Part shown: piece after piece, positions 10,810-26,700 of the stretch
Layout of the letters: each line of letters opens with the position of its first letter
Numbering within the stretch: position 1 is the first letter of the stretch
Assembly: GCA_965242865.1 (NCBI GenBank)
Contig: CBDETK010000013.1
Location: 2,208,001-2,272,000, forward strand
Source of the DNA: Candidatus Latescibacterota bacterium
GTDB lineage: Bacteria > Latescibacterota > UBA2968 > UBA8231
Direction of reading: 5' to 3'
Length of the DNA stretch: 64,000 nt
Made by a program: the position numbers and the translations under genes
Notes under the pieces: model-generated
What the model saw: only the letters and a program-made list of their open reading frames with translations
Told to the model about the DNA's origin: nothing
The model's database searches: none

Positions 10810-11844
10810 CTATTCGGCGGGTGAGCGCAAGTACTTGGTCTCCAGCTCGCCCATAATCCGTGCGGTGATGGCCCGGACTTCGTCCTCAAAGGTATCGACG
10901 TTGGCTTGGGTCACCAGCACCGTGCCCGAGTTGACGAAGTAGTGCTCGGGATGGGCTTGCCAGCCGTCGAGCAGGTAGCGCAAGAGGGCGCAAGAGATGT
11001 AGCCGTGGCCGTAGGGGTTTTGCGAGAGGGTCGCGTCGATGGCCCCTTGGCGGATCGCGTCGAGCACCACCGCGTCCGTGTCGATGCCGACGAAGTGGAT
11101 GCGCTCGTTGCCCGGGGTCTGGTTCCATTCGGACAGAATCGTCGCCGCGGCCACGGTCGGGGTGTACCCCGTGCAAATCACGCCATCGATCTCCGCGATC
11201 CGCGCTGAGAGCGCGTCTTGGATTTTGGCCGTGCTGGTCTCAATCGACTCCATGCCGGCGATTTCTTGGACGATCTGGACCGCGGGGTATTTGGCCACGG
11301 CCGCCTCAACGCCTTCTTTGCGCAGGATGGTGTTGGGGTCTTCGACCAGCTCTAGCACGTTGAGGATGTGGCCCTCGCCGCCCATAAAGCCGATCAGGGC
11401 CTCGGTCGCCTCCATCGCTGCCTGCCGGACGTCGGTCGCCACGCAAAACGAAGCTGGCGTCGGCCGCGTCGTCGGCGCTCCATAGCTGACGACGTACGCT
11501 CCGTTTTGCACCAATTCCTCGTAGAGGCCGTTGGCCGCGCTGGCGTCGGCCGGATAAAGCGAGAAGCCCTTGTAGCCTTGGGCCGCCAGCGGCTCGACGT
11601 TGGCGTTTTCGTTGTCTTGGGTCCAGTTTTGGCCGATCTGACGCTTGATCTCGACTCCGGTGTCGCGCTCATAGCCGATCACCCCTTTTTGCACCTCTTC
11701 GACGTAAGGATGGACCATCAAGGCGTACCAGACGATTTTTTTCGCCGCGGGCGCGTCGCCCGATTGGCCGGACCCGCCGCACCCGGCGACGAGTGCGGTG
11801 AAAAGGAAAGCTGCGAGGAGAAATGGGAGAAAAGTTTTGTACAT
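10810..11844 (-). CDS. Monosaccharide ABC transporter substrate-binding lipoprotein
   Basis: Lipobox LVAG-C; Peripla_BP-type motifs (VGID, IDATLSQNPYGHGY); cognate ATPase and permease downstream. Confidence 0.9.
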   Translation of the reverse strand: MYKTFLPFLLAAFLFTALVAGCGGSGQSGDAPAAKKIVWYALMVHPYVEEVQKGVIGYERDTGVEIKRQIGQNWTQDNENANVEPLAAQGYKGFSLYPADASAANGLYEELVQNGAYVVSYGAPTTRPTPASFCVATDVRQAAMEATEALIGFMGGEGHILNVLELVEDPNTILRKEGVEAAVAKYPAVQIVQEIAGMESIETSTAKIQDALSARIAEIDGVICTGYTPTVAAATILSEWNQTPGNERIHFVGIDTDAVVLDAIRQGAIDATLSQNPYGHGYISCALLRYLLDGWQAHPEHYFVNSGTVLVTQANVDTFEDEVRAITARIMGELETKYLRSPAE

Positions 11845-11900
11845 AATTATCCTCTTGATTTGGAGCGTCGGGAGGGTGAATGATTATGCTACGTTTGCGA

Positions 11901-12034
11901 AGAAGCGTCCTTAAAAATCACGTTGCTTTTGGCCTAGTCTTTCACGCCTCTAGATGTCATTCCCGCGAACGCGGGAATCCAAAAAAGCACCAAGCCGAAT
12001 CGGAGACTGAAAACCTAGTTTTAAGAACGCTTCT
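11901..12034. mobile_element. MITE-like element (family A) with internal CGTC-type REP / dRS3-like hairpin
   Basis: TIRs AGAAGCGTCCTTAAAA / TTTTAAGAACGCTTCT (1 mismatch); internal GTCATTCCCGCGAACGCGGGAATCC. Confidence 0.75.
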
Positions 12035-12068
12035 AATACAAAATCAAAGCTAGCGTGAATGCTCCGAG

Positions 12069-13403
12069 CTAAACCATGTCTTGGCCAATGAACTCAGGTT
12101 TCTCTCGGACGGGGGGTGGTTCGATATCGTCAATTTCGCTCGGTCGTTCGTACTTGCCGATATTAAAACTGGCTTGACTCAATCCCCAAGCAACCGCGAG
12201 TCGATGATATGACTTGTCGTCAATCTCTGCATCGAGAGAATTGGGCTTTGGTAGCTGAATCTGTATAATACCGTCTGAACTCCTAATCCACCTCTGAAGC
12301 CATTCCCCAGCATCAGATACTACATCCTGATACGCTCGCATGACACTCCCGCCCCCACAAAGAAATACGGGAAGTGTACTGTTCCAACAACGAGACAAAG
12401 GATCGCGTTTACTCCGTAAGTCCCCAATTGTTCTGGTGAGAACTTTCTTGCAATCATTTCTGAATCTTCTTTCTGCTCCGGCTCCCCTTCTCTGACGTAG
12501 TATTTCTACTCCGAGAAGCTCGAGGTGGGCGGTGAGTATGGGTACTCGGTCATCTCCTTCATGTTGTCTTGGTCCTAGATTGAATGAACAGACATCCAGC
12601 GTACTCGCTCCAATATCCACCAAAAGGTGAAGCCCTTCGTTTCGGCGCGGCGAGTTGGCATATCCTGCTACTTCCGCGATAACTTCCGGTCTCAATTCAG
12701 AGTCAATAGGCATCTCCTCAGATTCATACCTTGCGAACATGACATCATCAATTGCCTCTTGAGCATCGTCAACCGTTATTGGTCCGGGCCGTCTTGAGGC
12801 GAGCCAAGCAGCCTTGTGCGATATGCAAAAGGCATCTCGTAGTTTTTCATTGTCATCAACATCAGCAGGTAAGCCGAGATTGCATGACCACTCAAGATAA
12901 TACTCGCCGAAGACATTTCTCTTATTCGCGATAAACCAGCGGCGGACATATCGGAGTACTAAGGCAAGATAGGCGACCGCTACCGTGATTGAAGATGCGT
13001 CACAAGGTGGGCCGGACGCGGAGTTTATTCCCTTGTTTGGCTCATTCATCAAGCCAAGTTTTATATCCTTAAGGAACGAAGCTCCTGGCGTATAGGCGAG
13101 TGAACACCGTCGGTCCTCGTCGATAAACAATTGGGTGGGAATCAAGTACTTCAGGCTTTCATCAGCGAGTTTACCGAAAGGAACGGCAAATGCGGGCTCG
13201 CCAGCGTAGAATGGAACATTTACTACGACCTTGGTGAATGACGTTCCAATATCCACTCCCACTATAACATCGAGGGGTTGCGAGCGGTCATTATGCTGGA
13301 ACTGGTGTTCGTTTTCAGAAATCATGCTTACTCTCCATAGGTTAGAAGAAGGGGGGAACGTTGTCATGTAGGAATCGGAAGCTGGTATAAAAAACCCCAT
13401 CAT
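12069..13403 (-). CDS. Hsp70/actin-like (ASKHA fold) ATPase-domain protein
   Basis: Phosphate-1 VGVDIGTSFTKV, connect-1 PEVIAE, phosphate-2 LVDIGASTLDV, adenosine LCGGGS; ATGA overlap with the helicase stop. Confidence 0.75.
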   Translation of the reverse strand: MMGFFIPASDSYMTTFPPSSNLWRVSMISENEHQFQHNDRSQPLDVIVGVDIGTSFTKVVVNVPFYAGEPAFAVPFGKLADESLKYLIPTQLFIDEDRRCSLAYTPGASFLKDIKLGLMNEPNKGINSASGPPCDASSITVAVAYLALVLRYVRRWFIANKRNVFGEYYLEWSCNLGLPADVDDNEKLRDAFCISHKAAWLASRRPGPITVDDAQEAIDDVMFARYESEEMPIDSELRPEVIAEVAGYANSPRRNEGLHLLVDIGASTLDVCSFNLGPRQHEGDDRVPILTAHLELLGVEILRQRRGAGAERRFRNDCKKVLTRTIGDLRSKRDPLSRCWNSTLPVFLCGGGSVMRAYQDVVSDAGEWLQRWIRSSDGIIQIQLPKPNSLDAEIDDKSYHRLAVAWGLSQASFNIGKYERPSEIDDIEPPPVREKPEFIGQDMV

Positions 13404-16400
13404 TCAATTAGAACTACAGCTACGAAAATCTCTTCGGACTCAGGAGTTATCTTTCGACGCGATTCAATCTCCCGTCGCCTTCTTTCACCCCAATCATCAA
13501 GGCTCCTCAAACGTCCCTTGGTTGCAGGTATCATTCTATTTCTCCCTGTCTCCCTAAAGTTTCTGAGTGTACGTTCGATTCCTTCCCTTTGCTTTGAAAA
13601 GTGTCGATGGCGATGTCTCTCTTGGATGTCTGCCCGGTCTTCGTTTTGATTCCTTTCTTCTTCGGTATAGCTTTCAAAGTGGCCATCAAGAGTTCTGAAC
13701 AGAACCTCGTCGGCGATGTAATGGACTTGCTGTAGTTCACACTGATGTCCGACTTCCAGCCAATGCCTCCCTTTCGCAGCGCAGGTGATGGCAAGACGTT
13801 CAGCCTTGTCTTCGCGGAGGAGTGTTTCTGGCCGATCCAGCGGGACGGCCGCGTAAACGAGTTTCTCTACATCTCGAAGTCCCTTGATGCGCCAAAGGGA
13901 AGCCGCCAAAACGTAAACGCCTAGCCCGAGGGATATATCAAGATCGCACCTTGAAACTTTTACGGACACAGCCGGGCGGAGCTGAGGGACTGTTTTTGAG
14001 ATTCGATCACTGATGAAACGAACCAGAGGGTGAAATTGGGAAATAGTCTCCTTTCTCTCGGGCTTTCCAGCTAATACGCGGTTTTTGAACCGACAGATAA
14101 TCGGTTTGGCCGAGTACTGGTCCAATTGCGTTTGACCGCTCAAATTGTTCAATCGGATAAACTCCGATAGAGCATGCCTCGCTTCGCTATTCAGAGATAG
14201 TTCGTATTCGTGGTTCTGTCCATCTGTTTCCTTAAGCACATAACCGGGGTAATTAGCACTTAGGAAATCGGTCACATAAGCGAGCAGGTCGGTTCCGTTG
14301 ATCCAACGATTCATATCGTGTGCAGCCTTAACCTGCTGGAGAATGTAGTCGCCGTATGCCACCAGATGTGCTGCATTTGCTTCCAAGCGCTCCTCTTCCT
14401 GTTTCCGCGTCGCTAGGGCTTGGGCGGTTTGGTTGATGCGCTCTTCTTGTTGTTTGGGCGATAAATGACCCAGAACTAGATCGCGTGTGAGTTTTTCGAT
14501 CTCCTCGCCGAGAATGGCCTCAAAATCGCCCAACGCATTTCGGCACAAATCGAGCTTGTCGTAGAGGCATTCATAGATACGCGCATCTATCGTATTGGCA
14601 TAAAAAAGGTTCCAGATCAGCACCTTCTCGGATTTTTGGCCGAGGCGATCAACGCGGCCGATTCTCTGTTCGACGCGCATGGGGTTCCAAGGAAGATCGT
14701 AGTTGATCACGACCCATGAAAATTGGAGATCAACGCCCTCTCCCCCCACTTCTGAAGACAGCATAACGCTCGGTCCCTTGGGCGACCTGAATTCTTGGAT
14801 AATGTCGTACTTGGGCCGGCTGCCGCCGCCGCGAAGGACAATGCTCGAAATACCGTCGTCGTCGAGCCGTTCTTTCAAGTAATCAAGTGTACCCAAGAAT
14901 GTGGAAAAGACGATGACTTTGTCTTTTGGATATTTCTCGAAGAACTCCTGCAACATTTTACGTAACCGCGTATATTTGCTGTCGCTACCTGCGAGGTCAT
15001 CGAAAGCAACGAATTCACCTGAGTTATTCACTAGTTCTTCTGTTAGTGGTCCCAATTTTTGCCGTTGTCGGGCATCCTGATCTGTCCCTGAAAGCTGGTC
15101 TTCGGGAATCTCAATACGCCGTTCCTGCCAAGATTTCAGGGCAGCCGGCATACAGCTAGCCATCTGGCGCTGAGGCTGAGCGAGCAGAAAGGCTTCGTTA
15201 ATGTCGTTTTCTTGGGCGTATGAGCCGACGATATTCGTTACGGTATCGTAGAATTCGCGCTCTATCTCCGTCATCGGAATGAACTTGGGAATTGGCTGGC
15301 GAACGACGCGCCACTCCTTGACGTCTCTTTTCCGGGTCCGGGTTATGGTATGGCCCAATAGGTTAATGGTTTCGAGACGATAGGCGATACGGCTTCGTTT
15401 TGTAGGTGAATCGAGGGACCCATCCTCGATCTGGTCTAATAGGGTTTTAAGTTGCCGGTTGCCCTGCAAAAGGCGGTTGTTTCTATCTTCCGAAAGCACT
15501 GAAACCAACTCGTCAGGCGAGCTCTTCCCCTTCAACACACGGTCTAATAGGGTTTTAAGTTGCCGGTTGCTCTGCAAAAGGCGGTTTTTTCTAGCTTCCA
15601 AAAGTACTGAAACCAACTCGTCAGGCGAGCTCTTTCCCTTCAACACTAAGTCCCGCGCACGGACCAATGGCTCGTTGGCCCTGAGGATTTCGTCAAAATT
15701 ATCTTCCCGCTCAAAGGTGTCGGGATCAAGGAGATGAAGCAGGGAGAAGAGATCGCGGTTGTAGTTATGGATCGGAGTCGCGGTCAGTAGGACGAGATAG
15801 TCAGAAACACCGCGCATCAGCTGGCCCAAGCGATTGGTTTGGGTGGCGGGATTACGCATGTAGTGTGCCTCGTCAACCACAAGCAGGTCGATAAGATGTT
15901 CTTCGTGTTCCTTCCCCTTGAGAAGCCGAGCCAACTTACCGACATCGTTAGCATCGTCCTCAGCATCTTCCCAACCGCGGCGAGGACGCAGACCCTGGAT
16001 GCTTGCGATGATGGCAAATCCCCGCACGTGTGCTTGCCGGTCCTGCAAAATTCTCAGGGTATCCCTCGCGGTGCAAATCTCTGGGGACACGCCGATCTTG
16101 TTGACGAGTTCGTCCCGCCATTTTTCACGCAGAGCAGCAGGACATAAGACGACCAGCCTTTTCAAATTGAATCGGCTTCTTAGCTCAGTCCAAATCAGTC
16201 CTGCTTCAATGGTCTTGCCCATACCAACCTCATCAGCGATTAGCAGGCTGTTCGTCGGAGTCTGAAGGAGCTTGAGGACGGGCTTGAACTGGTAGGCATA
16301 GAAGTCCGTATCGGTGGCTTCCATGCTATAAATGATGTCGGCCAATCGCCCCGTGAGACGAACATGGATCAGTGTCCGCCGAAGAGCCTCGGGCGTTCCG

Positions 16401-16630
16401 AGTTTCCCCGTGTACAGCAAATCGAGAGGGTGCATCGGCTCATCAGGAAGCGGTTCAAGTTGCTCCTTCGGTATGAAGTCGGGTGCTGGCCTGTCATTGA
16501 ATCGAACCCGATATACCTGACGACCTCTTCTTAGGACACAGACTCCGTCTGTCAGCGTACCGACCCGCTGCGGATCGTGAATCAGTCGCACCTGCTTTCC
16601 AGCTTGCCATTTTTCCTCGCCGCTCTGCAT
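13400..16630 (-). CDS. SNF2-family (RapA-like) helicase/ATPase, 1076 aa
   Basis: LIADEVGMGKT, DEAH, LTATP, GGEGVDLQ, NYDLPWNP, EQRIGRVDRLGQ. Confidence 0.9.
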   Translation of the reverse strand: MQSGEEKWQAGKQVRLIHDPQRVGTLTDGVCVLRRGRQVYRVRFNDRPAPDFIPKEQLEPLPDEPMHPLDLLYTGKLGTPEALRRTLIHVRLTGRLADIIYSMEATDTDFYAYQFKPVLKLLQTPTNSLLIADEVGMGKTIEAGLIWTELRSRFNLKRLVVLCPAALREKWRDELVNKIGVSPEICTARDTLRILQDRQAHVRGFAIIASIQGLRPRRGWEDAEDDANDVGKLARLLKGKEHEEHLIDLLVVDEAHYMRNPATQTNRLGQLMRGVSDYLVLLTATPIHNYNRDLFSLLHLLDPDTFEREDNFDEILRANEPLVRARDLVLKGKSSPDELVSVLLEARKNRLLQSNRQLKTLLDRVLKGKSSPDELVSVLSEDRNNRLLQGNRQLKTLLDQIEDGSLDSPTKRSRIAYRLETINLLGHTITRTRKRDVKEWRVVRQPIPKFIPMTEIEREFYDTVTNIVGSYAQENDINEAFLLAQPQRQMASCMPAALKSWQERRIEIPEDQLSGTDQDARQRQKLGPLTEELVNNSGEFVAFDDLAGSDSKYTRLRKMLQEFFEKYPKDKVIVFSTFLGTLDYLKERLDDDGISSIVLRGGGSRPKYDIIQEFRSPKGPSVMLSSEVGGEGVDLQFSWVVINYDLPWNPMRVEQRIGRVDRLGQKSEKVLIWNLFYANTIDARIYECLYDKLDLCRNALGDFEAILGEEIEKLTRDLVLGHLSPKQQEERINQTAQALATRKQEEERLEANAAHLVAYGDYILQQVKAAHDMNRWINGTDLLAYVTDFLSANYPGYVLKETDGQNHEYELSLNSEARHALSEFIRLNNLSGQTQLDQYSAKPIICRFKNRVLAGKPERKETISQFHPLVRFISDRISKTVPQLRPAVSVKVSRCDLDISLGLGVYVLAASLWRIKGLRDVEKLVYAAVPLDRPETLLREDKAERLAITCAAKGRHWLEVGHQCELQQVHYIADEVLFRTLDGHFESYTEEERNQNEDRADIQERHRHRHFSKQREGIERTLRNFRETGRNRMIPATKGRLRSLDDWGERRRREIESRRKITPESEEIFVAVVLIE
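15433..15646. repeat. 108-bp (36-aa) in-frame tandem duplication inside the SNF2 gene
   Basis: GGTCTAATAGGGTTTTAAGTTGCCGG starts at both 15433 and 15541; peptide VLKGKSSPDELVSVL...NRQLKTLLD occurs twice. Confidence 0.9.
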
Positions 16631-16648
16631 TCCTTTTGTTTCCCCCCT

Positions 16649-16783
16649 AGAAGCTGTCTGAAAACTCTGGTGGTCGTCTCTTGGGTCTAAAAGATCCCGG
16701 CTGGATTCCCGCTTTCGCGGGAAGGACGGAAGCTGTTTCTACGGCTTGTTCAACACCCCAAAGTGGGTTTTCAGACAGCTTCT
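16649..16783. mobile_element. MITE-like element (family B) with internal REP-like hairpin
   Basis: Perfect 17-bp TIR AGAAGCTGTCTGAAAAC / GTTTTCAGACAGCTTCT; internal CTGGATTCCCGCTTTCGCGGGAA. Confidence 0.8.
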
Positions 16784-16922
16784 TAACGGATCACGTTGAA
16801 GTAGCTAAGTATTATAGGTAAGAGTAGGCTCTTTTAACAACTAACCCAGCCTAGGAAACCACCCCCCTTGAGCCAATCTCCGCTTTGGCCTACTTTGCCG
16901 TCCCACTCAAAAGGAGCTTGTC

Positions 16923-17801
16923 ATGTATCGGATTGCGACTCTCGGCGTTTTGCTGCTGGCCCTGCCGGCCCTCGCCCACTACCCCGAAGACACCACCTTC
17001 AAGGTCTTCCAATTTCCCGACGACCGCGTCCCGCAGATGGACGGCAATGCGGCCGACTGGGCCAACGTGCCCGCCGAGTACTTCTACGACTATACCCAAT
17101 ACGCGGAACTGCACCGCGAGCGCGGCGCGCCCGACACCACGGATTTTTACGTGCGCCGCTCGGCCGTCGGCTGGAACAAAACCCACAACCGCCTGTACTT
17201 CATGGCCGAGGTGTATGACGACATCTGGCGGTTCCACAAGGACCGCACCGACTCGCTCGACACCCCCCATAGCCGCCTGACCGGAGCCCACGTCCACGGC
17301 GCAGATATATGGGAGATCGTCATTGACGCCGATCACGGCGGCGATAAGGTCATCCACTTCGCGGACTCAGCAGAAGCGCCCCACGTGGAATTGCGCCACC
17401 GCAGCGCGTACACGCAAAACTACCACCTCTACATCCCGCCGCTCAACGACCACTACTGGCACTGGCTGTGGGGCAAGGCCCTGTGGACCAAGGAGGAACG
17501 CTATTCAGCGGTGGGATGGCAGGGCGCGGTCGAGCACTTGTCCGGGGGGACCGTGATCTACGAATGCTATCTAACGCCCTTTGACGACCTGCACCCGGAA
17601 GGACCGCACCTGAGCCGCCGCCACGCGCTGCAAGAAGGCGCGATCATCGGCCTCGGCTGGGCCTTTCTCGACGCGGACAGCAAAGAAGACGACTTCGATG
17701 GCTTTTGGGCGCTGACGCAACACCCGAAAATGTATTGCAGCGGAGAATTTATCGGCGACTTTGAGTTGATGCCGCTCGAGGAAGGGGTGTTTGGAGAATA
17801 A
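16923..17801 (+). CDS. Secreted protein, CBM9/DOMON-like family (paralog of 26811-27779)
   Basis: AAGGAG RBS; signal peptide ending ALA-H; FQFP..P.MDG...DW, GWN...RLY and IDADH.G motifs shared with the paralog. Confidence 0.6.
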   Translation: MYRIATLGVLLLALPALAHYPEDTTFKVFQFPDDRVPQMDGNAADWANVPAEYFYDYTQYAELHRERGAPDTTDFYVRRSAVGWNKTHNRLYFMAEVYDDIWRFHKDRTDSLDTPHSRLTGAHVHGADIWEIVIDADHGGDKVIHFADSAEAPHVELRHRSAYTQNYHLYIPPLNDHYWHWLWGKALWTKEERYSAVGWQGAVEHLSGGTVIYECYLTPFDDLHPEGPHLSRRHALQEGAIIGLGWAFLDADSKEDDFDGFWALTQHPKMYCSGEFIGDFELMPLEEGVFGE

Positions 17802-17924
17802 GGGCTCTTACTACACGACACCTGCCTCCCGCCGGCCAAGGATCGAGGGCGGATGCAGCGGGAACAGCAGAAGAGGCGTCCGCAAAGTAAGGGCGGCGTA
17901 CTGAGCTATAATTTTCGCCCGCGC

Positions 17925-20504
17925 TCAGTACGCCACCGCGACCGTCCTGAGAACATAAGCGTCTTTGACCTGCGCTCCCTCGATGTCGGTATCCACGCTC
18001 AGTTGCACCACATACAGCCCCGGCGGCACCATGCGCCCGCTGGCGTCGCGGCCATCCCACTCGATCGCATAGGGGCCGGTGCTAAAGGGGCGCGCTTGCG
18101 CCAGACGCCGCAGTAGGCGGCCTCCCAAATCGTAGATCGCCGCGGCCACCGGGCTATCGTCGCCGACCCGCACGACGTTGAAGGCAAAGACCGTGCGGTC
18201 GTTGACCCCATCGCCGTTGGGCGAAAAGGCCGCCGGCCGCACGGCCACATCCATGAGCAGGGCGTTTTGCTCGACCGCGGCGACAATCGTCGTGGTGTTG
18301 CCGACGACCTGCGGTAGGGCCTCCCCGGGATCGATCCGCTGCCAAGCACCGCTGTCTGCGCCGCTATCGCTGTTGCGCAGGGCGGCCTGCAACACCGCGC
18401 CGGTGACGAAAAGGGCCGTCTCAAAATCCAGCCTCAGCACTTCGGTCGAGCCATTGGGCTGTATCGCGTCAAAGCGCACGTGCAGGGAGTCGCGGCCCGT
18501 AGGCAGGACTTCGACCCCGGGCAGCGCGTCCGGGCCGGTCTCGCCGTTGAAATCCGCCGCTCGACCGCCGTACAGGCCCGCCATATTTAGCTCCATGTTC
18601 GACGGCGCGAACAACAACAACTCGTCAAACCCCGAATCGCTGCGGTCAAACTCCGGCCGCACGTACAGGGAAAACGGCCGTTGAACCCCGAGTTCTTCGA
18701 CCTCAGACGGGCCGATCTCGCCCAACAGCCGCTGGGCCACGGGATTGGCAAAGTTGAGATGGACCGAGCGCAGCGTGGGGCTGACGGCCGGGTCTTCCGA
18801 CAGCAAGGTCGCCTGCACGGTCAGGAACTCCCGCGGCGACGGCGAGGAAATCGGGCTGCCCGCTAAGTTCTCGTAGGGCGCGCTCCAATTGCCCCAATCG
18901 CTGCCGGGCACTTGCTCGGCGACGATGTCGCCCCGGAACAGGGACAGCAGCTTGTTGTACTCGCTCTCGGTCACTTCGGTGCCGTCTTTTTTGAAATAGT
19001 GCAGGATCTCGCCCAATTCACTGCCCGTGCGCGTCTGAACCAACACTTGGGTCCCGGGGGGAGTGTCCGCATCCCACTCAATCGACAGCAAGTTGCGGCT
19101 GCCGCCCAAGCGAATTAGGTCGGACCGCAGCGAAACCTCCGGTTGGAAGCCAGCGCCGTAGAATTGCAGCTCGGCTATATCGGCGGTGCGGGCGCCAATG
19201 GCGTTTAAGGTCCACTGAAAGCGACCAAACCGCGCCTTGATCGGCTCGAACTCCTCGCCTTCAAACCGCGAGGTGGGGCGCGCCCCTAGCGACGCCTTAG
19301 TGGTCCACTGGAGGCTGCCGTCCGGCGCGAGGGTGCCGTCGGAAAAATCCATTCGGTAGCTGGGGAACAAGCCGCCGTTGTAAATCAGGCGGAAGGTATC
19401 GACCCAATAAAAGGAACCCAAGTCGAAAACCAGCTCCAGCTCGGGATCCGCCACGGCCGAGGAGACTCCGTAAAAGATGCGATTGAAGGTCGCCAAGTCG
19501 CCATCGACGAACTTGGTCAGGGCCAGCGGCTGCTTGGCATTGGTGGAGATGACGCCGCCGCGCGCGAGGATGCCGGCCGTGAGCTCATCCCCTTCGTTCC
19601 ACACCTCCAACTCGGCCAAGCGGGGCAATTCGCGGCGAAAGTAGCGGACGCTGCCCCGGCGATCCGCGTCCAAGATGTCGTACAGGTCTTGGTCAACGGG
19701 CACTTCGCGGCCATCGGGCTGGCGCTTGAAGTACTGGATCGCCCCGCGCATCTCTTCGCTGAGAGCGTCGTATTCGTCGGCCGAGACTTCTGTGCCGAGC
19801 ATCCCGTCAGTATCCGTGACTAAAATTTGCACAAAGCGCACGGCCGCAGCTTGGACGTTGGGCTGTTCGTTGGTCAGATCGACCGTAAAGACCCGCTGGC
19901 TCTTGTTTTTGCTCAAGGTCCGCAACACGGTCTTAAAGGCCGGGTTTTCGCTGTTTTGCAGGCGCGCCGGCTTGAGGCCATCGGAGATGAGCACCTCAAA
20001 GAGGAGAAAGGGATCGCCCATGCCCTCCTCGACAAAGCGCACCACCAGTTCCTTGGCAAAAACCACGCGGCCCAAGTCGATCACAAACCACCACTGGGAA
20101 GCCAAGTCTCGGTCGCCGGCTGGCGGATCGGGTTGCCAATAGGTGGAGAGGTCGCCGTCGAGCAGCTTGACCACATCGGCGACATTGGAGCCGCCCTTGA
20201 CCGCATCGGCGAGGACGATTTCGGCCGGCTCTTTGTCGCCGAGGGACGCCGGCGGGTTAAAGCGCAGGTAATCGACAATGTCGAACACGGCGTTGGTATT
20301 TTTTGCAATGCGCCGAGCGCGCACGGCGCCGTCTGGAGAAATGGTCAAGGTCCCTGGGGCAAATTCCCAGTTTTGCCAATGGTTGCGACCATTGATTACG
20401 ACCTGATTGCCGCTAACTCGGTGGCCGGCCTGCTGGGCATCCACGGCGGCCCCGGCCAATGAGACCGCCAGCCCAATGCAAAAAGCGCGTCCTAAGATAG
20501 TCAT
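17925..20504 (-). CDS. Secreted protein with discoidin-like motifs and C-terminal FlgD-Ig/'FSPNGDGVND' domain
   Basis: Signal peptide; LLDGDLSTYW and WFVIDLG motifs; C-terminal FSPNGDGVND...IYDLGGR...WDGRDASG..VPPGLY...VAVAY. Confidence 0.7.
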   Translation of the reverse strand: MTILGRAFCIGLAVSLAGAAVDAQQAGHRVSGNQVVINGRNHWQNWEFAPGTLTISPDGAVRARRIAKNTNAVFDIVDYLRFNPPASLGDKEPAEIVLADAVKGGSNVADVVKLLDGDLSTYWQPDPPAGDRDLASQWWFVIDLGRVVFAKELVVRFVEEGMGDPFLLFEVLISDGLKPARLQNSENPAFKTVLRTLSKNKSQRVFTVDLTNEQPNVQAAAVRFVQILVTDTDGMLGTEVSADEYDALSEEMRGAIQYFKRQPDGREVPVDQDLYDILDADRRGSVRYFRRELPRLAELEVWNEGDELTAGILARGGVISTNAKQPLALTKFVDGDLATFNRIFYGVSSAVADPELELVFDLGSFYWVDTFRLIYNGGLFPSYRMDFSDGTLAPDGSLQWTTKASLGARPTSRFEGEEFEPIKARFGRFQWTLNAIGARTADIAELQFYGAGFQPEVSLRSDLIRLGGSRNLLSIEWDADTPPGTQVLVQTRTGSELGEILHYFKKDGTEVTESEYNKLLSLFRGDIVAEQVPGSDWGNWSAPYENLAGSPISSPSPREFLTVQATLLSEDPAVSPTLRSVHLNFANPVAQRLLGEIGPSEVEELGVQRPFSLYVRPEFDRSDSGFDELLLFAPSNMELNMAGLYGGRAADFNGETGPDALPGVEVLPTGRDSLHVRFDAIQPNGSTEVLRLDFETALFVTGAVLQAALRNSDSGADSGAWQRIDPGEALPQVVGNTTTIVAAVEQNALLMDVAVRPAAFSPNGDGVNDRTVFAFNVVRVGDDSPVAAAIYDLGGRLLRRLAQARPFSTGPYAIEWDGRDASGRMVPPGLYVVQLSVDTDIEGAQVKDAYVLRTVAVAY

Positions 20505-20528
20505 AGCATTTCGTTTCCCGTTGTTCTT

Positions 20529-20739
20529 AGAGGCGGTCTGAAAATCCCCCTTGGGTCGTGTTGAACAAGCCGTAACCGTAGGGGGCCGGCCCCCGTGCCG
20601 GCCCCCGTGCCGGCCCCCGTCATTCCCGTGCCAGCCCCCGTCATTCCCGTGCCAGCCCCCGTCATTCCCGTGAAAACGGGAATCCAGCCGGGACCGTTTG
20701 GACGCAAGGAACGACCACCAGAGTTTGCAGACCGCTTCT
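20529..20739. mobile_element. MITE-like element (family B, inverted relative to 16649) with internal REP expansion
   Basis: TIRs AGAGGCGGTCTGAAAA / TTTGCAGACCGCTTCT; carries reverse complements of CTCTGGTGGTCGT and ACGGCTTGTTCAACAC from the 16649 copy; 12- and 21-bp tandem units. Confidence 0.75.
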
Positions 20740-20740
20740 A

Positions 20741-20845
20741 AGAGCGTTCTTAAAGTTAGGGTTTCAGTTTCTGATTCGGCTTGGTCCTTTTCTGGATTCC
20801 CGCCCCGTGTCGGAGCACGGGGTGACGTTCTTTCGCGGGAATGAC
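20741..20845. mobile_element. Partial MITE-like element (family A, inverted) with a nested hairpin
   Basis: Matches the reverse complement of 11956-12034; extra CCCCGTGTCGGAGCACGGGGTGAC inserted in the REP loop. Confidence 0.7.
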
Positions 20846-20925
20846 CAGAGTCGTCAAGGGCGGGTCGCTGGGGTCGCGTAGTAAGCGTTCAGGGTACGGA
20901 AATTGTGCATCGTCCGCCATTCTTT

Positions 20926-22851
20926 TCAATATACTAGGGCGGCCACGGCCTGCCGCTGAGTGGTTCCCTGATCGGTCTCGACGCGCAAGCCGACCACGTA
21001 CAACCCCGGCGGCACCAACGCGCCCTGCTCGTCCCGACCATCCCACACCCCCACATACCGACCGCGACCCAACCAAGACGACGCTACCACCCCCACCTGA
21101 CGACCCGACACGTCATACACCCAACAGGCCACCGACGACACCTCCGAAACGTTCAGCACATCGCAGCCGATTTCCACCGCATCGTTGACCCCGTCGCCGT
21201 TGGGACTAAACACTCCCGGCACCACCGACAATGCTCCCAATGGACCCGTGCCTAACCCCGTCAAATCCACCCGCAGCCGCTCGCTTGAAGGCGTCCCATC
21301 GGCATCGCCGACCGCCAACGCCTGCGGCACCTCGTGAGGATGGGCGCTGTTGAAGATGCGCCCGCTGAACACCGTGCCAAACTGGAACACCGACGCATGG
21401 AAATCCACTTCGAGGACCTCGTCGGTGCGCTGGGCATCCATCGGGGGCACGGCCAGCACCACGCCCGTGTCATCGCGCTGGAGGACCTCAAAGGGCACCG
21501 GCTGCCCGGACAGGCGCACCGCATCCACCTGCTGCACCCGCGCCGGCGTGTCGATAGCCAACCGATCAAAGCCCAAGTCGCCGCTGGCCATGGACGCCTT
21601 GACCTTATAAGTGAACGCGGCCACCGCGCCCGGCGCTACAGCCGAGGGCACGATCTCGGCGATGGCTTGGTGTGCCACCGGCGGGATCGACACGGCCAGC
21701 ATCAGCCAGTCGAGCCGCCCGCTGGCGCGCTGCTCGGAGGTGAAGTCCGCACGCACCTGCACGAACTGGCGCGGACCCGCCCCGGCGATGGCTCCCTCGC
21801 TGGCAGTAAACTCTTCGGCCGTGTTCCAGAACGCCCAATTCTCCGTGTCGTGGGTGATGCCGGCCTGCGCTCCTCGCGCCAGCTTGTTGTAGGACGCCAA
21901 GGTCAAGGGACGCCCCCGCTCGTCAAAGCGGGTGCGCTCGCCGCCGCGAAAGGTGTAGCGCCAGTACGTGTTGGGATCGGCGTCGTGGCCGCTGCGCGTG
22001 CTCAACGCGAGGAGGGCGCCGTCGTCCTGCTGGCCTGCCCACGTCAAGCGGCCGAGGCTGGCGGGCGCACCCAAGTCGATCACATTCGACACATAGCGGG
22101 CAAACGGCGCAAAGCCGCGCCCGTAAATCTCCAACTCCGCGATCTCCCAAATGTTGCGCGTGTTCTCCTTGGCGTAAAACAAAACGTAGCGGATGGGCTG
22201 CTGCGGGAATTTCAGGTCGATGACGGGCTGGGTATTTTCCACCACGTCATGCACGATGTCAAAATCAAAATAAAATCCCGCGGCCCCCAAATTCACTTCC
22301 CGCGTCCCATCCTTGAGGGGATTGCCGTCGTTGATGCCGATTCTGAACTGCTGCACAAAGCGATCGGTGCGGTGCTGGTCGCGGGGAAAAAAGCGGATGC
22401 GGTCGAGGAGCAGCGGCGCGCCCAAGTCAAACGTCAGGGCCTTGATATAGGGCCAATGCGCGGCAAAACGGCCGTCGCCGAGAAAGGCGGTCTTTAAGTC
22501 GCCGTCAAACATCAACGCATCGGTCGCCGTGTGGGACAGCCAGCCATTCCAAGCGAACCGGAGCACTTCGCCCCCGCGGGCCTCAATCAGCGGGGTCAGG
22601 TTGGTGTCCGGGCTGAACGACTGCGGGCGCATCGAATCTGGGCCGAGCTGCATTAGGGTTGCACGACCGTGTTGGGCCGCGTCAATTTCGCTCCAGCCGA
22701 TTTGCACGAATTCGTAGGGAATGTCCAGTGCTGGCCGCGGCAGGCTCTCCCCGCCGAGCCGATAGATCGTCAGCCCGCTCGCCGGCGGCACGTGGAGTAG
22801 GGACGCGGCGAAAACCAGCGAGCCGGCCCAGTGTTTTGTCGGACAAAACAA
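20926..22851 (-). CDS. Secreted 'LTIYR.GG' family protein with C-terminal FlgD-Ig/'FSPNGDG' domain
   Basis: Probable TTG start at 22851, just after the upstream stop; paralogous to neighbours; ends AALVY. Confidence 0.7.
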   Translation of the reverse strand: MFCPTKHWAGSLVFAASLLHVPPASGLTIYRLGGESLPRPALDIPYEFVQIGWSEIDAAQHGRATLMQLGPDSMRPQSFSPDTNLTPLIEARGGEVLRFAWNGWLSHTATDALMFDGDLKTAFLGDGRFAAHWPYIKALTFDLGAPLLLDRIRFFPRDQHRTDRFVQQFRIGINDGNPLKDGTREVNLGAAGFYFDFDIVHDVVENTQPVIDLKFPQQPIRYVLFYAKENTRNIWEIAELEIYGRGFAPFARYVSNVIDLGAPASLGRLTWAGQQDDGALLALSTRSGHDADPNTYWRYTFRGGERTRFDERGRPLTLASYNKLARGAQAGITHDTENWAFWNTAEEFTASEGAIAGAGPRQFVQVRADFTSEQRASGRLDWLMLAVSIPPVAHQAIAEIVPSAVAPGAVAAFTYKVKASMASGDLGFDRLAIDTPARVQQVDAVRLSGQPVPFEVLQRDDTGVVLAVPPMDAQRTDEVLEVDFHASVFQFGTVFSGRIFNSAHPHEVPQALAVGDADGTPSSERLRVDLTGLGTGPLGALSVVPGVFSPNGDGVNDAVEIGCDVLNVSEVSSVACWVYDVSGRQVGVVASSWLGRGRYVGVWDGRDEQGALVPPGLYVVGLRVETDQGTTQRQAVAALVY

Positions 22852-22861
22852 TGTAGCGCGC

Positions 22862-24763
22862 TTAGTACGCGAGCGAGATGACGGCTTGCCGCGAGGCTGG
22901 CCCCTTGTCGGTCTCGACGCGCACGCGCAGAATGTACAACCCCGGCGGCACCAGCTCGCCGCGCTCATCCCGCCCGTCCCACTCTCCTGCGTACCGGCCG
23001 CTGGACGTCCAATCCGACCCCACCACGCTCAATAACCGGCCCGACAAATCGTACACCGCGGACTCCACCTGCACCGGCCCCACCAAGTTTAGCACGTTGC
23101 ACTCAATGCGCACCGCGTCGTTGATGCCGTCGCCGTTGGGGCTGAACGCCGATGGCCGCAGCACTAAGTCGCCGATGGTCTGCGCCCCCAAGCGGGTCAA
23201 CCCCACGCTCAACCCGTTGCTCTCGGAGCGCACATCTATATCCCCAGCCTCTAGGCTTTGCGGCACTTCTTGCGGCTGCTCGCTGTTGGAAATCCGGCCG
23301 GAAAACACCGTGCCGAACTTAAAGATCGCGGCCTGAAAATCCACCTCGATGAGCTCCTCGGTGCGCTGTGCGTCGATCTTCGGCAACTGCATTGCAAAGC
23401 CGGTCTCGTCTAGCCGCACCACTTCAAAGGCCACGGGCTCGCCCGAAATTCGCACCGCATCCACGCTCTGGGCTTGGACCGGCGTGTCAATGTCGAGCCG
23501 GTCAAAGCCCAAATCGCCGCTGGCCAAGGCCGCCCGCAGCTTGTAGGTGAAGGCCGTAACCTCCCCCGGCGGCACGGCCGCGGGCGTTATTTCGGCGATG
23601 GCTTGTTGCGCCACCGGCGGGATCGACACGGCAAACTGCACCCAATCCAACTGCCCACTGGTCTCTCGGCTCGAGGAGAAGTCCGCACGCACCTGCACGT
23701 AGCGTTGGGGGCCATCCCCGATCAACGCCCCCTGCCCGGCTGCGAAGTCGTACCCCCCCCAAAACGCCCAATTCTCGGTGTCGTGGGTGATGCCGGCCTG
23801 CTCGCCGCGGGCCAGCTTATTGTACGATGCCAGCGTCAGCGGGCGGCCTTGGGCGTCAAAGCGGGTGCGCTCGCCGCCGCGAAAGGTGGTGCGCCAATAG
23901 ATATTCGGGTCCGCGTCCAGCCCGCTGCGCATGCTTAGGGCCACGTTGGCCTCCTCGCTCTCGCGTCCGGCCCACGTCAGCTCTCCCAAGCTGGCCAAGG
24001 CTCCTAAGTCGATCACATTGGACACGTAGCCGGCAAACGGGGCAAAGCCATTGCCGTAGATTTCCAACTCGGCGATCTCCCAGATACCGCGCGTGTTTTC
24101 CGCGGCCGAGAAGAGCAAGCGCCGCACGGGTTCGGCTGGCAGGGGCAAGTCGATGACGGCTTCGGTGTTTTCGGTTATGTCGTAGATGATGTCGAAGTCC
24201 AACTCGCTGTTTCGCCGCCCAATGAGGAACTCGCGGGAGCCGTCCTTGAGGGGATCGCCGTCGTTGATGCCGATCTTGAAGGTCTCTACAAAGCGGTCCG
24301 TCAGGTGTTTGGTGCGCGGGAAAAAGCGAATCCGCTCCAACAGGAGGGGCGCGCCAAAATCAAAGGCGAGGTACTTCTCCGGCGGCCCGTGCGAGGCAAA
24401 GTGCCCGTCGCCGAGGTAAATGGTGCTCGGGTCTTGGTCGAACATGAAGAGATCGTCGGCCTGCGGCGGCCCCCAGCCAATCCACACCAAGTTCAGCACT
24501 TGGCCGCCTTGCTCTTCGATGATCGGCACTAAATTGACCGACGAATCAAACCGTTGGGGGCGCGTAAAATCGGGATCAAACTCCAGCAACTCCGCGCGGC
24601 CGTGCTGCGCCGCGTCGAGATCGCTCCAACTGATTTGCACGAATTCGTCCGCTCGCTCTGGGGGCGGCAGGCTCTCGCCGCCGATTCGATAGATCGTCAG
24701 CCCAAGCGCCGGACCGACCGCGCCGCTCCACAGGACCGCCCATAGACACGCGATCAAACGCAT
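22862..24763 (-). CDS. Secreted 'LTIYR.GG' family protein with C-terminal FlgD-Ig/'FSPNGDG' domain
   Basis: AAGGAG RBS before ATG 24763; signal peptide MRLIACLW...ALG; ends ISLAY. Confidence 0.75.
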   Translation of the reverse strand: MRLIACLWAVLWSGAVGPALGLTIYRIGGESLPPPERADEFVQISWSDLDAAQHGRAELLEFDPDFTRPQRFDSSVNLVPIIEEQGGQVLNLVWIGWGPPQADDLFMFDQDPSTIYLGDGHFASHGPPEKYLAFDFGAPLLLERIRFFPRTKHLTDRFVETFKIGINDGDPLKDGSREFLIGRRNSELDFDIIYDITENTEAVIDLPLPAEPVRRLLFSAAENTRGIWEIAELEIYGNGFAPFAGYVSNVIDLGALASLGELTWAGRESEEANVALSMRSGLDADPNIYWRTTFRGGERTRFDAQGRPLTLASYNKLARGEQAGITHDTENWAFWGGYDFAAGQGALIGDGPQRYVQVRADFSSSRETSGQLDWVQFAVSIPPVAQQAIAEITPAAVPPGEVTAFTYKLRAALASGDLGFDRLDIDTPVQAQSVDAVRISGEPVAFEVVRLDETGFAMQLPKIDAQRTEELIEVDFQAAIFKFGTVFSGRISNSEQPQEVPQSLEAGDIDVRSESNGLSVGLTRLGAQTIGDLVLRPSAFSPNGDGINDAVRIECNVLNLVGPVQVESAVYDLSGRLLSVVGSDWTSSGRYAGEWDGRDERGELVPPGLYILRVRVETDKGPASRQAVISLAY

Positions 24764-24774
24764 ACTCGGCTCCT

Positions 24775-26700
24775 TCAATATACTAGGGCGGCCACGGCCT
24801 GCCGCTGAGTGGTTCCCTGATCGGTCTCGACGCGCAAGCCGACCACGTACAACCCCGGCGGCACCAACGCGCCCTGCTCGTCCCGACCATCCCACACCCC
24901 CACGTACCGACCGCGCCCCAACCAAGACGACGCTACCGCCCCCACCCGACGACCCGACACGTCATACACCCAACAGGCCACCGACGACACCTCCGAAACA
25001 TTTAGCACGTCGCAGCCGATCTCCACCGCATCGTTGACCCCGTCGCCGTTGGGACTAAACACTCCCGGCACCACCGACAATGCTCCCAATGGACCCGTGC
25101 CCAACCCCGTCAAATCCACCCTAAGCCGCTCGCTCGAAGGCGTCCCATCGGCATCGCCGACCGCCAACGCCTGCGGCACCTCGTGAGGGTGTGCGCTGTT
25201 GAAGATGCGCCCGCTAAACACCGTGCCAAACTGGAACACCGACGCATGAAAATCCACTTCGAGGACCTCGTCGGTGCGCTGGGCGTCCATCGGGGGCACG
25301 GCCAGCACCACGCCGGCCGCGTCGCGCTGGAGGACCTCAAAGGGCACGGGCTGCCCGGACAGGCGCACCGCATCCACCTGCTGCACCCGCGCCGGCGTGT
25401 CAATGGCCAGCCGGTCAAAGCCCAAGTCGCCGCTGGCCATGGACGCCTTAACCTTGTAAGTGAACGCGGCAGCCGCGCCCGGCGCCACGGCCGAGGGCAC
25501 GATCTCGGCGACGGCTTGGTGCGCCACCGGCGGGATCGACACCGCCAGCATCAGCCAATCGAGCCGCCCGCTGGCGCGCTGCTCGGAGGTGAAGTCCGCA
25601 CGCACCTGCACGAACTGGCGCGGACCGGCCCCGGCGATGGCCCCCTCGCTCGCGGCAAACTCCTCGGCCGTGCTCCAGAACGTCCACGCGGCCGTGTCGT
25701 GGGTAATGCCGGCCTGCGCTCCCCGCGCCAGCTTGTTGTAGGACGCCAAGGTCAAGGGACGCCCTCGCTCGTCGAAGCGGGTGCGCTCGCCGCCGCGAAA
25801 GGTGTAGCGCCAGTACGTGTTGGGATCGGCGTCGTGGCCGCTGCGCGTGCTCAACGCGAGGAGGGCGCCGTCGTCCTGCTGACCTGCCCACGTCAAGCGG
25901 CCGAGGCTGGCGGGCGCACCCAAGTCGATCACATTGGACACATAGCGGGCAAACGGCGCAAAGCCCCGCCCGTAAATTTCCAACTCCGCGATCTCCCAAA
26001 TGCCGCGCGTGTTTTCGGGGGCTTCAAATAGCAACTGCTGCACCGGCACGGCTGGCAAGGGCATATCAATGACGGACTCGACGTTCTCAACGACATCGTA
26101 CGAAAGGTCAAAGTCAAAGAAGCTCCCCCGGATGCCCTGCGTAAATTCCCGAGTGCCCTTCTTGAGCGGGTCGCCGTCACTGATGCCGACGATGAAGCGC
26201 TGCACAAAGCGGTCGGCCAAAAATCGCTCGCGGGGGAAGAAGCGAATGCGCTCGAGGAAAAAGCGGCCGCCAAAGTCGAAAATCAGGGATTTTTGGCGGA
26301 TGACGCCGTAATCGCCGCCCCAATCGCCATCGCCCAACAGCGCGGTCGTGGCGTCGCCATCGAACATGGCCAAGTCGTTGCCGCTAGCCGGCCCCCAGCC
26401 GATCCAACTCAGGGACAGCACTTGGCCGCCGCGTTCTTCGAGCATTGGCACCAGATTGACCGTCGGATCCAAGTGCAGCGGCTCGACAAAGCCAGTATCT
26501 ATTGTTACGAGTTCGGCCAAGCCGTGCCTTTTGGGGTCCACCTCGGCCCATGCCAACTGCACAAATTCGTAGGGGACCTCCAAGTCGGGCGGCGGCAGGT
26601 CCGCCCCGCCGAGGCGAATTACGGTCAGGGCGGCAACCCAAGTTGGCCCGCCCCAAAAACACCATCCCAATGCGAGGAGAATTCCAATGCGTCGTGGCAT
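24775..26700 (-). CDS. Secreted 'LTIYR.GG' family protein with C-terminal FlgD-Ig/'FSPNGDG' domain
   Basis: ATG 26700, signal peptide; C-terminal ~410 aa nearly identical to the 20926 gene; ends AALVY. Confidence 0.75.
   Translation of the reverse strand: MPRRIGILLALGWCFWGGPTWVAALTVIRLGGADLPPPDLEVPYEFVQLAWAEVDPKRHGLAELVTIDTGFVEPLHLDPTVNLVPMLEERGGQVLSLSWIGWGPASGNDLAMFDGDATTALLGDGDWGGDYGVIRQKSLIFDFGGRFFLERIRFFPRERFLADRFVQRFIVGISDGDPLKKGTREFTQGIRGSFFDFDLSYDVVENVESVIDMPLPAVPVQQLLFEAPENTRGIWEIAELEIYGRGFAPFARYVSNVIDLGAPASLGRLTWAGQQDDGALLALSTRSGHDADPNTYWRYTFRGGERTRFDERGRPLTLASYNKLARGAQAGITHDTAAWTFWSTAEEFAASEGAIAGAGPRQFVQVRADFTSEQRASGRLDWLMLAVSIPPVAHQAVAEIVPSAVAPGAAAAFTYKVKASMASGDLGFDRLAIDTPARVQQVDAVRLSGQPVPFEVLQRDAAGVVLAVPPMDAQRTDEVLEVDFHASVFQFGTVFSGRIFNSAHPHEVPQALAVGDADGTPSSERLRVDLTGLGTGPLGALSVVPGVFSPNGDGVNDAVEIGCDVLNVSEVSSVACWVYDVSGRRVGAVASSWLGRGRYVGVWDGRDEQGALVPPGLYVVGLRVETDQGTTQRQAVAALVY

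Follow-up and report, generated by a model that had tools for sequence, protein, structure and literature searches.

Four short repeats, each containing a hairpin, occur in a 64,000-nt stretch of the genome of a Candidatus Latescibacterota bacterium (the window; part of the main contig, C13, of a 6.0-Mb genome with a GC content of 60.6%), and they raise the questions of which enzymes move such repeats and how the same hairpin came to lie in all of them. The repeats are related to one another, were found by reading of the sequence together with a repeat scan, and fall into two families, A and B. We consider it likely that they are gene-less IS5-type transposable elements of the miniature inverted-repeat kind (MITEs) mobilised by resident relatives, and that each of them carries a hairpin of the kind known as NTS. 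The features that identify the families as MITEs were observed directly: their anatomy with terminal inverted repeats (TIRs), a target duplication of fixed length, resident parent insertion sequences (ISs) with matching ends and, at the B2/A2 locus, an empty site in a relative. Equally direct are the match of the hairpin to NTS, its fixed position within each family and the finding that the genome contains an ssnA homologue. We infer that mobilisation occurs in trans and that NTS has been amplified by hitch-hiking.

The window elements, their families and their parents

The original prediction had described four copies in two families. All four are present, with their limits corrected to those given below, where the features of this part of the window are listed:

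11902–12033, + strand: A1, full family-A MITE of 132 nt, ends GAAGCG...CGCTTC
11956–11981, + strand: NTS/dRS3 hairpin of A1, short form, 8-bp stem, -8.0 kcal/mol as single-stranded DNA (ssDNA)
16650–16782, + strand: B1, full family-B MITE of 133 nt, perfect 17-nt TIR (17/17)
16701–16727, - strand: NTS hairpin of B1, tag GTCC in place of GTCA
20530–20738, - strand: B2, family-B MITE enlarged to 209 nt, flanks TTA and TAA
20583–20660, + strand: tandem array in B2, periods of 12 and 21 nt
20661–20687, + strand: NTS hairpin of B2, compensated C-G to T-A stem change
20739–20741: TAA common to the B2 end and the A2 end
20742–20845, - strand: A2, one-armed family-A element, right arm with TIR plus long-form NTS
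20846–20884: 36-nt tail without TIR after A2, then a second TAA (20882–20884)
11804–16863: 5.06-kb segment with A1, a 444-aa gene, a 1076-aa SNF2-helicase gene and B1

The TIRs of A1 and B1 are 16–17 nt long, with one mismatch in A1. A1 is the most diverged copy of family A (85% identical to its nearest relative), and the other A copies are 94–98% identical to their nearest neighbour. Sequence is shared over 61 nt at 89% between A1 and A2, and over 88 nt at 85% between B1 and B2. B2 owes its 209 nt to the internal tandem array, in which three copies of the tag and left hairpin half adjoin the complete NTS. A2 is not a full element; its long-form NTS (20792–20845) contains a 27-nt nested hairpin in the loop, and B2, A2 and the tail together form a compound insertion (20530–20881). 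The flanking trinucleotides are GAA/TAA for A1, CTA/TTA for B1 and TTA/TAA for B2. All four copies are intergenic, located between genes or upstream of genes, and B1 lies upstream of the SNF2-type helicase gene, with its end 19 nt from the start codon. An arm-by-arm profile search of the window identified no further copies.

Across the whole genome, the BLASTN check that the original prediction had called for returned 66–93 matches per window element. Profile searches, in which rows matching both strands or the other family's model were merged by hand, gave 13 full-length loci for family A and eight for family B, whereas a lack of further copies with conserved TIRs had been named as an outcome that would refute the prediction. 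Perfect 3-bp TNA duplications flank 10 of the 13 full A copies and six of the eight full B copies, usually within C-TNA-G, and this share is far beyond chance in both families.

The parents were sought as TIR words located beside DDE transposase matches in the genome. A 931-bp IS5-family element is represented by two full copies plus a shorter, 758-bp copy that shares their ends (GAAGC[T/G]GTCTGAAAAC) and is flanked by TNA duplications; the first 20 nt of its left end are the first 20 nt of B1, and the match to family B as a whole extends over 16–20 nt. A second IS5-family element, of 924 bp, occurs in three copies with ends GAAGCCTTTTTAAAAC and TNA duplications, and its TIR equals that of family A at 14 of 16 bases. 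It contains a single 295-aa frame, which scored 212.7 bits on NCBIfam transpos_IS5_3 (cut-off 110); the 931-bp IS encodes the same protein in two frames, with matches to Pfam DUF4096 and DDE_Tnp_1. No other pair of A-type TIRs 0.3–6 kb apart was found on the main contig. The predicted IS5-type ends and TNA targets were borne out, in that the chromosome contains intact or near-intact IS5-family elements that agree with the MITEs in their ends and in TNA duplication. These elements with matching TIRs also support the predicted mobilisation in trans, which we continue to infer. A 3-bp TNA duplication combined with GAG-like ends characterises the IS1031 subgroup in ISfinder; the putative assignment to it made in the original prediction fits the observed TNA sites and GA(A/G)GC ends.

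Sorting of hairpin flanks identified family C as a third carrier of the NTS hairpin. It is unrelated to families A and B, is of IS630 type, measures about 115 nt and comprises 31 full copies with TIRs TAGCAGTCCTAAAT... The flanking dinucleotide is duplicated in 26 of these 31 copies and is TA in 25. Its parent is an IS630-family element of about 1.12–1.14 kb with at least five copies, the best frame of which scored 107.2 bits on NCBIfam transpos_IS630 (cut-off 100). Recent activity is suggested by three C copies that are identical, hairpins included, and by the 94–98% nearest-neighbour identities in family A.

Within each of families A, B and C the hairpin occupies one position in one orientation, and it was present in every full-length model match inspected, sometimes in a degenerate form. 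A self-comparison of the genome gave no MITE-like family of at least six copies that lacks NTS, a soft result, with a single such family examined by alignment.

In the mechanism that we propose, full-length relatives residing in the same chromosome would supply the DDE transposase that cuts and pastes MITEs lacking a gene of their own; these relatives are the 931-bp element for family B and most likely the 924-bp element for family A. Insertion would take place at C-TNA-G sites with duplication of TNA. The founder of each family would already have held one NTS/dRS3 hairpin, which would then be copied along at every transposition, and a parallel event would have occurred in the unrelated family C, derived from an IS630-family element and making TA duplications.

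Comparison with congeners provided one empty target site. The block containing B2 and A2 (20525–20885) is replaced by 19–24 nt in congeners G051 and G019, the two closest examined, and the junction in both, TTC-TAA-GG, is the target site in its empty state. The block sits between the first two of three large paralogous genes (17925–20504, 20926–22968 and 22862–24925), which encode proteins of 859, 680 and 687 aa with C-terminal F5/8 type C and FlgD-Ig/CHU_C-like domains. For A1 and B1 an empty site is unreadable because the whole 5.06-kb segment around them is missing in relatives; it was absent from four congeners, in the closest of which the flanking genes are 62 nt apart. This segment is not bounded by MITE ends, and the two MITEs are located about 45–100 nt inside its edges. 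We rejected a composite transposon running from A1 to B1, since the segment extends past both MITEs and the flanks GAA, TAA, CTA and TTA do not pair. The 444-aa protein encoded in the segment has no Pfam match, and the segment may represent a defence-type island.

The hairpin, its partners and its distribution

NTS is defined as CGTCATTCCCGCGMAVGCGGGAATCYRG and encompasses dRS3; Chenal et al (2025; PMC11893778) report that SsnA, a GIY-YIG nuclease of 94 aa, binds and cleaves it as ssDNA. The class had been named CGTC-tagged repetitive extragenic palindromes (REPs) by Di Nocera et al (2013; PMC3733652), with CGTC-1 corresponding to dRS3, and in the main text of that survey it appears to have no dedicated transposase. 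In our genome-wide census of ATTCCCG-N-CGGGAAT, spacer lengths showed sharp peaks at 6 nt (113 copies) and at 33 nt (42 copies), each other length accounting for 4–21 copies, and the commonest form fits the NTS definition from its second base on. Judged from its sequence, the core hairpin of the MITEs is the published NTS/dRS3 "Ssn-related motif" (PMC11893778) and a CGTC-REP in the sense of PMC3733652. The original prediction had likened the core to dRS3 and CGTC-type REPs, and the fit to the published definition agrees with it. The individual window hairpins depart slightly from the definition: those of A1 and B1 differ at 1–2 bases, that of B2 has the compensated stem pair and that of A2 has the 27-nt loop insert.

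This insert, which distinguishes the long form, has its own CGTCA tag and a 7-bp stem. All 42 of its copies lie within an NTS; a strict test showed this for 31, and visual inspection for the other 11, in which the left arm is degenerate. Families A and C contain long forms, as do single copies of B type and of A/B-chimeric type, and others are solo; their loops come in at least six variants. Ten of 30 congeners contain them, and the closest congener has 47 copies in which the loop differs by one base; this difference points to lineage-specific turnover.

The known partner of the hairpin is the single-strand nuclease SsnA, and the genome encodes a homologue, a single-domain GIY-YIG protein of 99 aa (PF01541, 55.8 bits) that is 60% identical (E 4e-35) to an open reading frame in a Neisseria dentiae metagenome-assembled genome (MAG); with an open reading frame of a Nitrospirae MAG the identity is 62%. 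The 370 nt upstream of its gene contain three NTS copies, one of them overlapping the start codon, and the homologue is a candidate enzyme for cleavage of the hairpin. A PDB sequence search with the homologue returned only spurious matches to WD40 repeats and was not used. We identified a second small single-domain GIY-YIG gene (95 aa, C13:2492567–2492857), which has a different hairpin upstream that shares the GTCAT tag yet has another stem (ATTCTGAGCG...); this pair may constitute a second Ssn/motif system in the same genome. NCBIfam contains no model naming either small GIY-YIG protein.

The partners that had originally been expected next to the REP, a RAYT or an IS110 gene, were not found there. 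The single Y1_Tnp gene of the genome has no hairpin within 8 kb, and the sole IS110-type gene is split into two frames, with the nearest hairpin 3.3 kb off; the partner identified is of SsnA type. The Y1 gene (IS200/RAYT-like; C13 at about 3384130–3384940) contains in-frame tandem repeats rich in Gly, Pro, Val and Thr between its HUH and Tyr motifs, and the DNA of these repeats resembles the GGCCCCCGTGCC array of B2.

The hairpin is widespread. In named public genomes, at least 129 stretches, belonging to many phyla, contain the exact 27-nt unit with its asymmetric flanks (23 specified bases); among the matches listed are Neisseria, Gallionella, Dehalococcoidia, Planctomycetes, Nitrospirae and candidate-phyla bacteria. 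Five unrelated public genomes contain 24–276 NTS copies each, and given these numbers we rejected pairs of foreign hairpins 1–5.5 kb apart as bounds of a larger element. Inverted repeats of at least 14 nt flank NTS in 20 of 105 single-hairpin foreign loci, compared with 3 of 105 shuffled controls. Closer to the genome of the window, the hairpin was present in 16 of 24 sampled genomes of the same genus, with 0–40 copies against 87 in this genome by the same pattern, and in two of 12 genomes of a second family. Family-C arms were found in seven of 30 congeners (32, 21 and 11 copies in three of them), and a full family-C copy with its hairpin is present in a Latescibacterota MAG (L032, E 1.3e-21). 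Hitch-hiking on DDE-type MITEs is a plausible route by which NTS has spread.

The strand of the hairpins shows a weak bias in the genome of the window, where the GC-skew curve is irregular: 22 forward and 36 reverse copies in the first 2.1 Mb, and 30 forward and 19 reverse in the last 2.1 Mb. A Dehalococcoidia chromosome (G042) has 188 NTS copies in long same-strand blocks, nearly all of them forward at 1.8–2.9 Mb and most of them reverse over the initial 1.5 Mb. Unlike the genome of the window, its pattern suggests a replication- or transcription-linked orientation bias.

Passengers or targets: alternatives and known systems

To relate the hairpins to the MITEs, we used an arm-only census of 143 hairpins (107 short and 36 long), as whole-element models over-called chimeras on account of the common hairpin and the similar TIRs. 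The classes were as follows:

49 copies: NTS within complete same-family MITEs (29 C, 15 A, 5 B)
4 copies: NTS between arms of different families (chimeras)
39 copies: NTS with one arm only (an upper bound)
51 copies: NTS without an arm

Ninety-two of the 143 NTS copies adjoin a MITE arm, and most NTS copies in this genome are probably passengers on DDE-type MITEs. By its own criterion, the original prediction would have been refuted had the TIR and REP parts occurred independently. In part they do, as is evident from the 51 armless hairpins and from some MITE arms that have no hairpin; what stands is the fixed position of the hairpin in each family.

Several observations weigh against the proposed mechanism. 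The armless copies make up 51 of 143, and the one-arm class is an upper bound in which the 23-nt right arm of family C is easily missed and B2 was scored as one-armed because of its array. The target duplications of A1 and B1 are imperfect, each being one base off, and the family-A TIR differs from that of the 924-bp IS at two of 16 bases. In the 931-bp IS the transposase is divided between two frames, and most IS630-type copies are frame-split, so present-day activity is at best putative. Congeners G008 and G014 hold 35–40 NTS but no family-C arm, which makes hitch-hiking one route among others and not the sole one. Finally, the data are compatible both with founders that captured an NTS and with an NTS that inserted into founders.

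An alternative explanation is that the hairpin is itself mobile, through Ssn or another single-strand mechanism, and was secondarily inserted into existing MITEs, which would be its targets and not its vehicles. NTS does show dynamics that are independent of the carrier: the 27-nt nested hairpin is found only in NTS loops (42 of 42), across several families as well as solo copies, and its loop exists in at least six variants. Half-site arrays exist, 51 copies are armless, and Chenal et al raise in their main text an IS-like NTS-ssnA-NTS unit (PMC11893778). We nevertheless regard insertion of a mobile hairpin as unlikely, as it would not lead us to expect a single position and orientation per family, the lack of full-length hairpin-less copies among the model matches inspected, or three identical C copies with identical hairpins.

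The remaining two explanations carry far less weight. Mobility as REPINs or BIME-like units driven by a Y1 (RAYT) transposase, or use of the hairpin as a target of an IS110/Piv-type recombinase in the manner of the Nf prophages of Neisseria, for which dRS3 is reportedly the integration site, could draw on the one Y1_Tnp gene and the one IS110-type gene of the genome. Neither gene is close to a hairpin, however (none within 8 kb of the former and 3.3 kb to the nearest for the latter, which is frame-split), and TIRs, TNA or TA duplications and DDE-type parents are unexpected for either kind of mobility; we consider this explanation very improbable. The palindrome could also be a local functional hairpin, such as a terminator, an mRNA stabiliser or a protein-binding site, that arose by convergence in each MITE family. 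The intergenic location of the four window copies and the stability of the hairpins are compatible with this idea, but it is hardly credible in view of the 23 exactly specified bases, asymmetric flanks included, in at least 129 stretches from many phyla, which make convergence untenable as it stands, and in view of the 24–276 copies in five unrelated genomes. Moreover, no T-run follows the hairpin 3' at the window copies, and an Rfam scan of 11500–21200 at E values up to 1 gave no match.

Carriage of NTS by DDE-type MITEs also sets this genome beside, and apart from, several known systems. As MITEs, the elements resemble those of the IS5 and IS630 families: they are 115–135 nt long, their TIRs match those of a resident IS, they have TNA or TA duplications, and they are non-coding and intergenic. 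They differ in that a single foreign hairpin module is common to three families, which belong to two transposase superfamilies, and in that truncation, chimera formation and cargo insertion occur at this module. The NIMEs of Neisseria are repeat units bounded by dRS3, and they are likewise mosaic and modular around the same hairpin; unlike the elements described here, they are not known to have TIRs or target duplications linked with a DDE transposase.

The hairpins share with the NTS/SsnA system the 27–28-nt sequence, an asymmetric tag, high copy number, occurrence in many phyla and a small single-domain GIY-YIG gene adjoined by NTS (PMC11893778). Here, in contrast, about two-thirds of the NTS copies adjoin DDE-type MITE arms; the main text of that paper does not use the term "MITE" and leaves the mode of spread open. 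With the CGTC-tagged REPs (PMC3733652) they have the tagged palindrome class in common, but here the repeats are located inside elements with identifiable IS5- and IS630-family transposases. Bacterial MITEs such as Correia/NEMIS, RUP and Nezha are listed in the main text of the same survey, and in the literature searched, which included the main texts of both papers, we found no earlier description of NTS or REP hairpins inside IS5 or IS630 MITEs. The parts are known and their combination was not found described; apparently new is the carriage of the hairpin by a third, unrelated MITE family, and the literature searched described neither its occurrence in three families from two transposase superfamilies nor rearrangements that cluster at it. 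The multiplication of NTS/dRS3/CGTC-REP hairpins has been an open point, with no dedicated transposase in the main text of the 2013 survey (PMC3733652) and an IS-like hypothesis only in that of PMC11893778. This genome offers a concrete and testable route, in which the hairpin, being part of the MITEs, would be copied by ordinary transposases of the IS5 and IS630 families.

Possible breakage and cargo uptake at the hairpin

Among arms with an intact outer end, 163 extend as far as the hairpin boundary and 29 end earlier, within the arm itself. For families A and B alone, 15 breaks fall within arms, to be set against 15 one-armed copies and four chimeras (family C also takes part in three of these), and the hairpin accounts for only about one-fifth of the element length. 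A concentration of breakage at the hairpin in families A and B is suggested by these numbers, which are not decisive.

Three larger elements of 2.4–2.7 kb with B-type ends carry cargo (C13 891246–893989, 1849832–1852364 and 1921095–1923536). Their TNA flanks are identical in two cases and one base apart in the third. The cargo is a lipoprotein gene with leucine-rich repeats (LRR) and LDL-receptor class B (YWTD) repeats, and the elements, which have no transposase, are non-autonomous. At the right end, each agrees with the B consensus from the right hairpin half outward; the left arm breaks off about 5 nt short of the hairpin in two of the elements. Approximately 16 more genes of this lipoprotein family end in the same half-hairpin and B arm. 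An IS5-type transposase may have amplified a eukaryote-like repeat-protein family.

More speculatively, NTS could be a shared, possibly nicked hairpin at which elements break, recombine, expand and take up cargo. We see some chance, although a rather doubtful one, that it serves as a joint for building and rebuilding DDE-type MITEs: nicking by Ssn on ssDNA would let arms be swapped, dropped or duplicated; whole genes would be loaded between the arms, as in the 2.4–2.7-kb B-ended elements, where the LRR/YWTD genes stand exactly at the place of the left NTS half; and the MITEs would carry NTS across genomes and phyla. The genome suggests that the target hairpin of a nuclease can shape how non-autonomous transposons break, recombine and pick up cargo, which in this genome consists of eukaryote-like repeat-protein genes.

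Another repeat in this genome precedes genes. About eight paralogous genes on the main contig (C13 371–411 kb and 493 kb) share a conserved upstream region with a sigma-54-like TGGCAC-N5-TTGC box and a signal-peptide start; it represents a repeat family and is no MITE.

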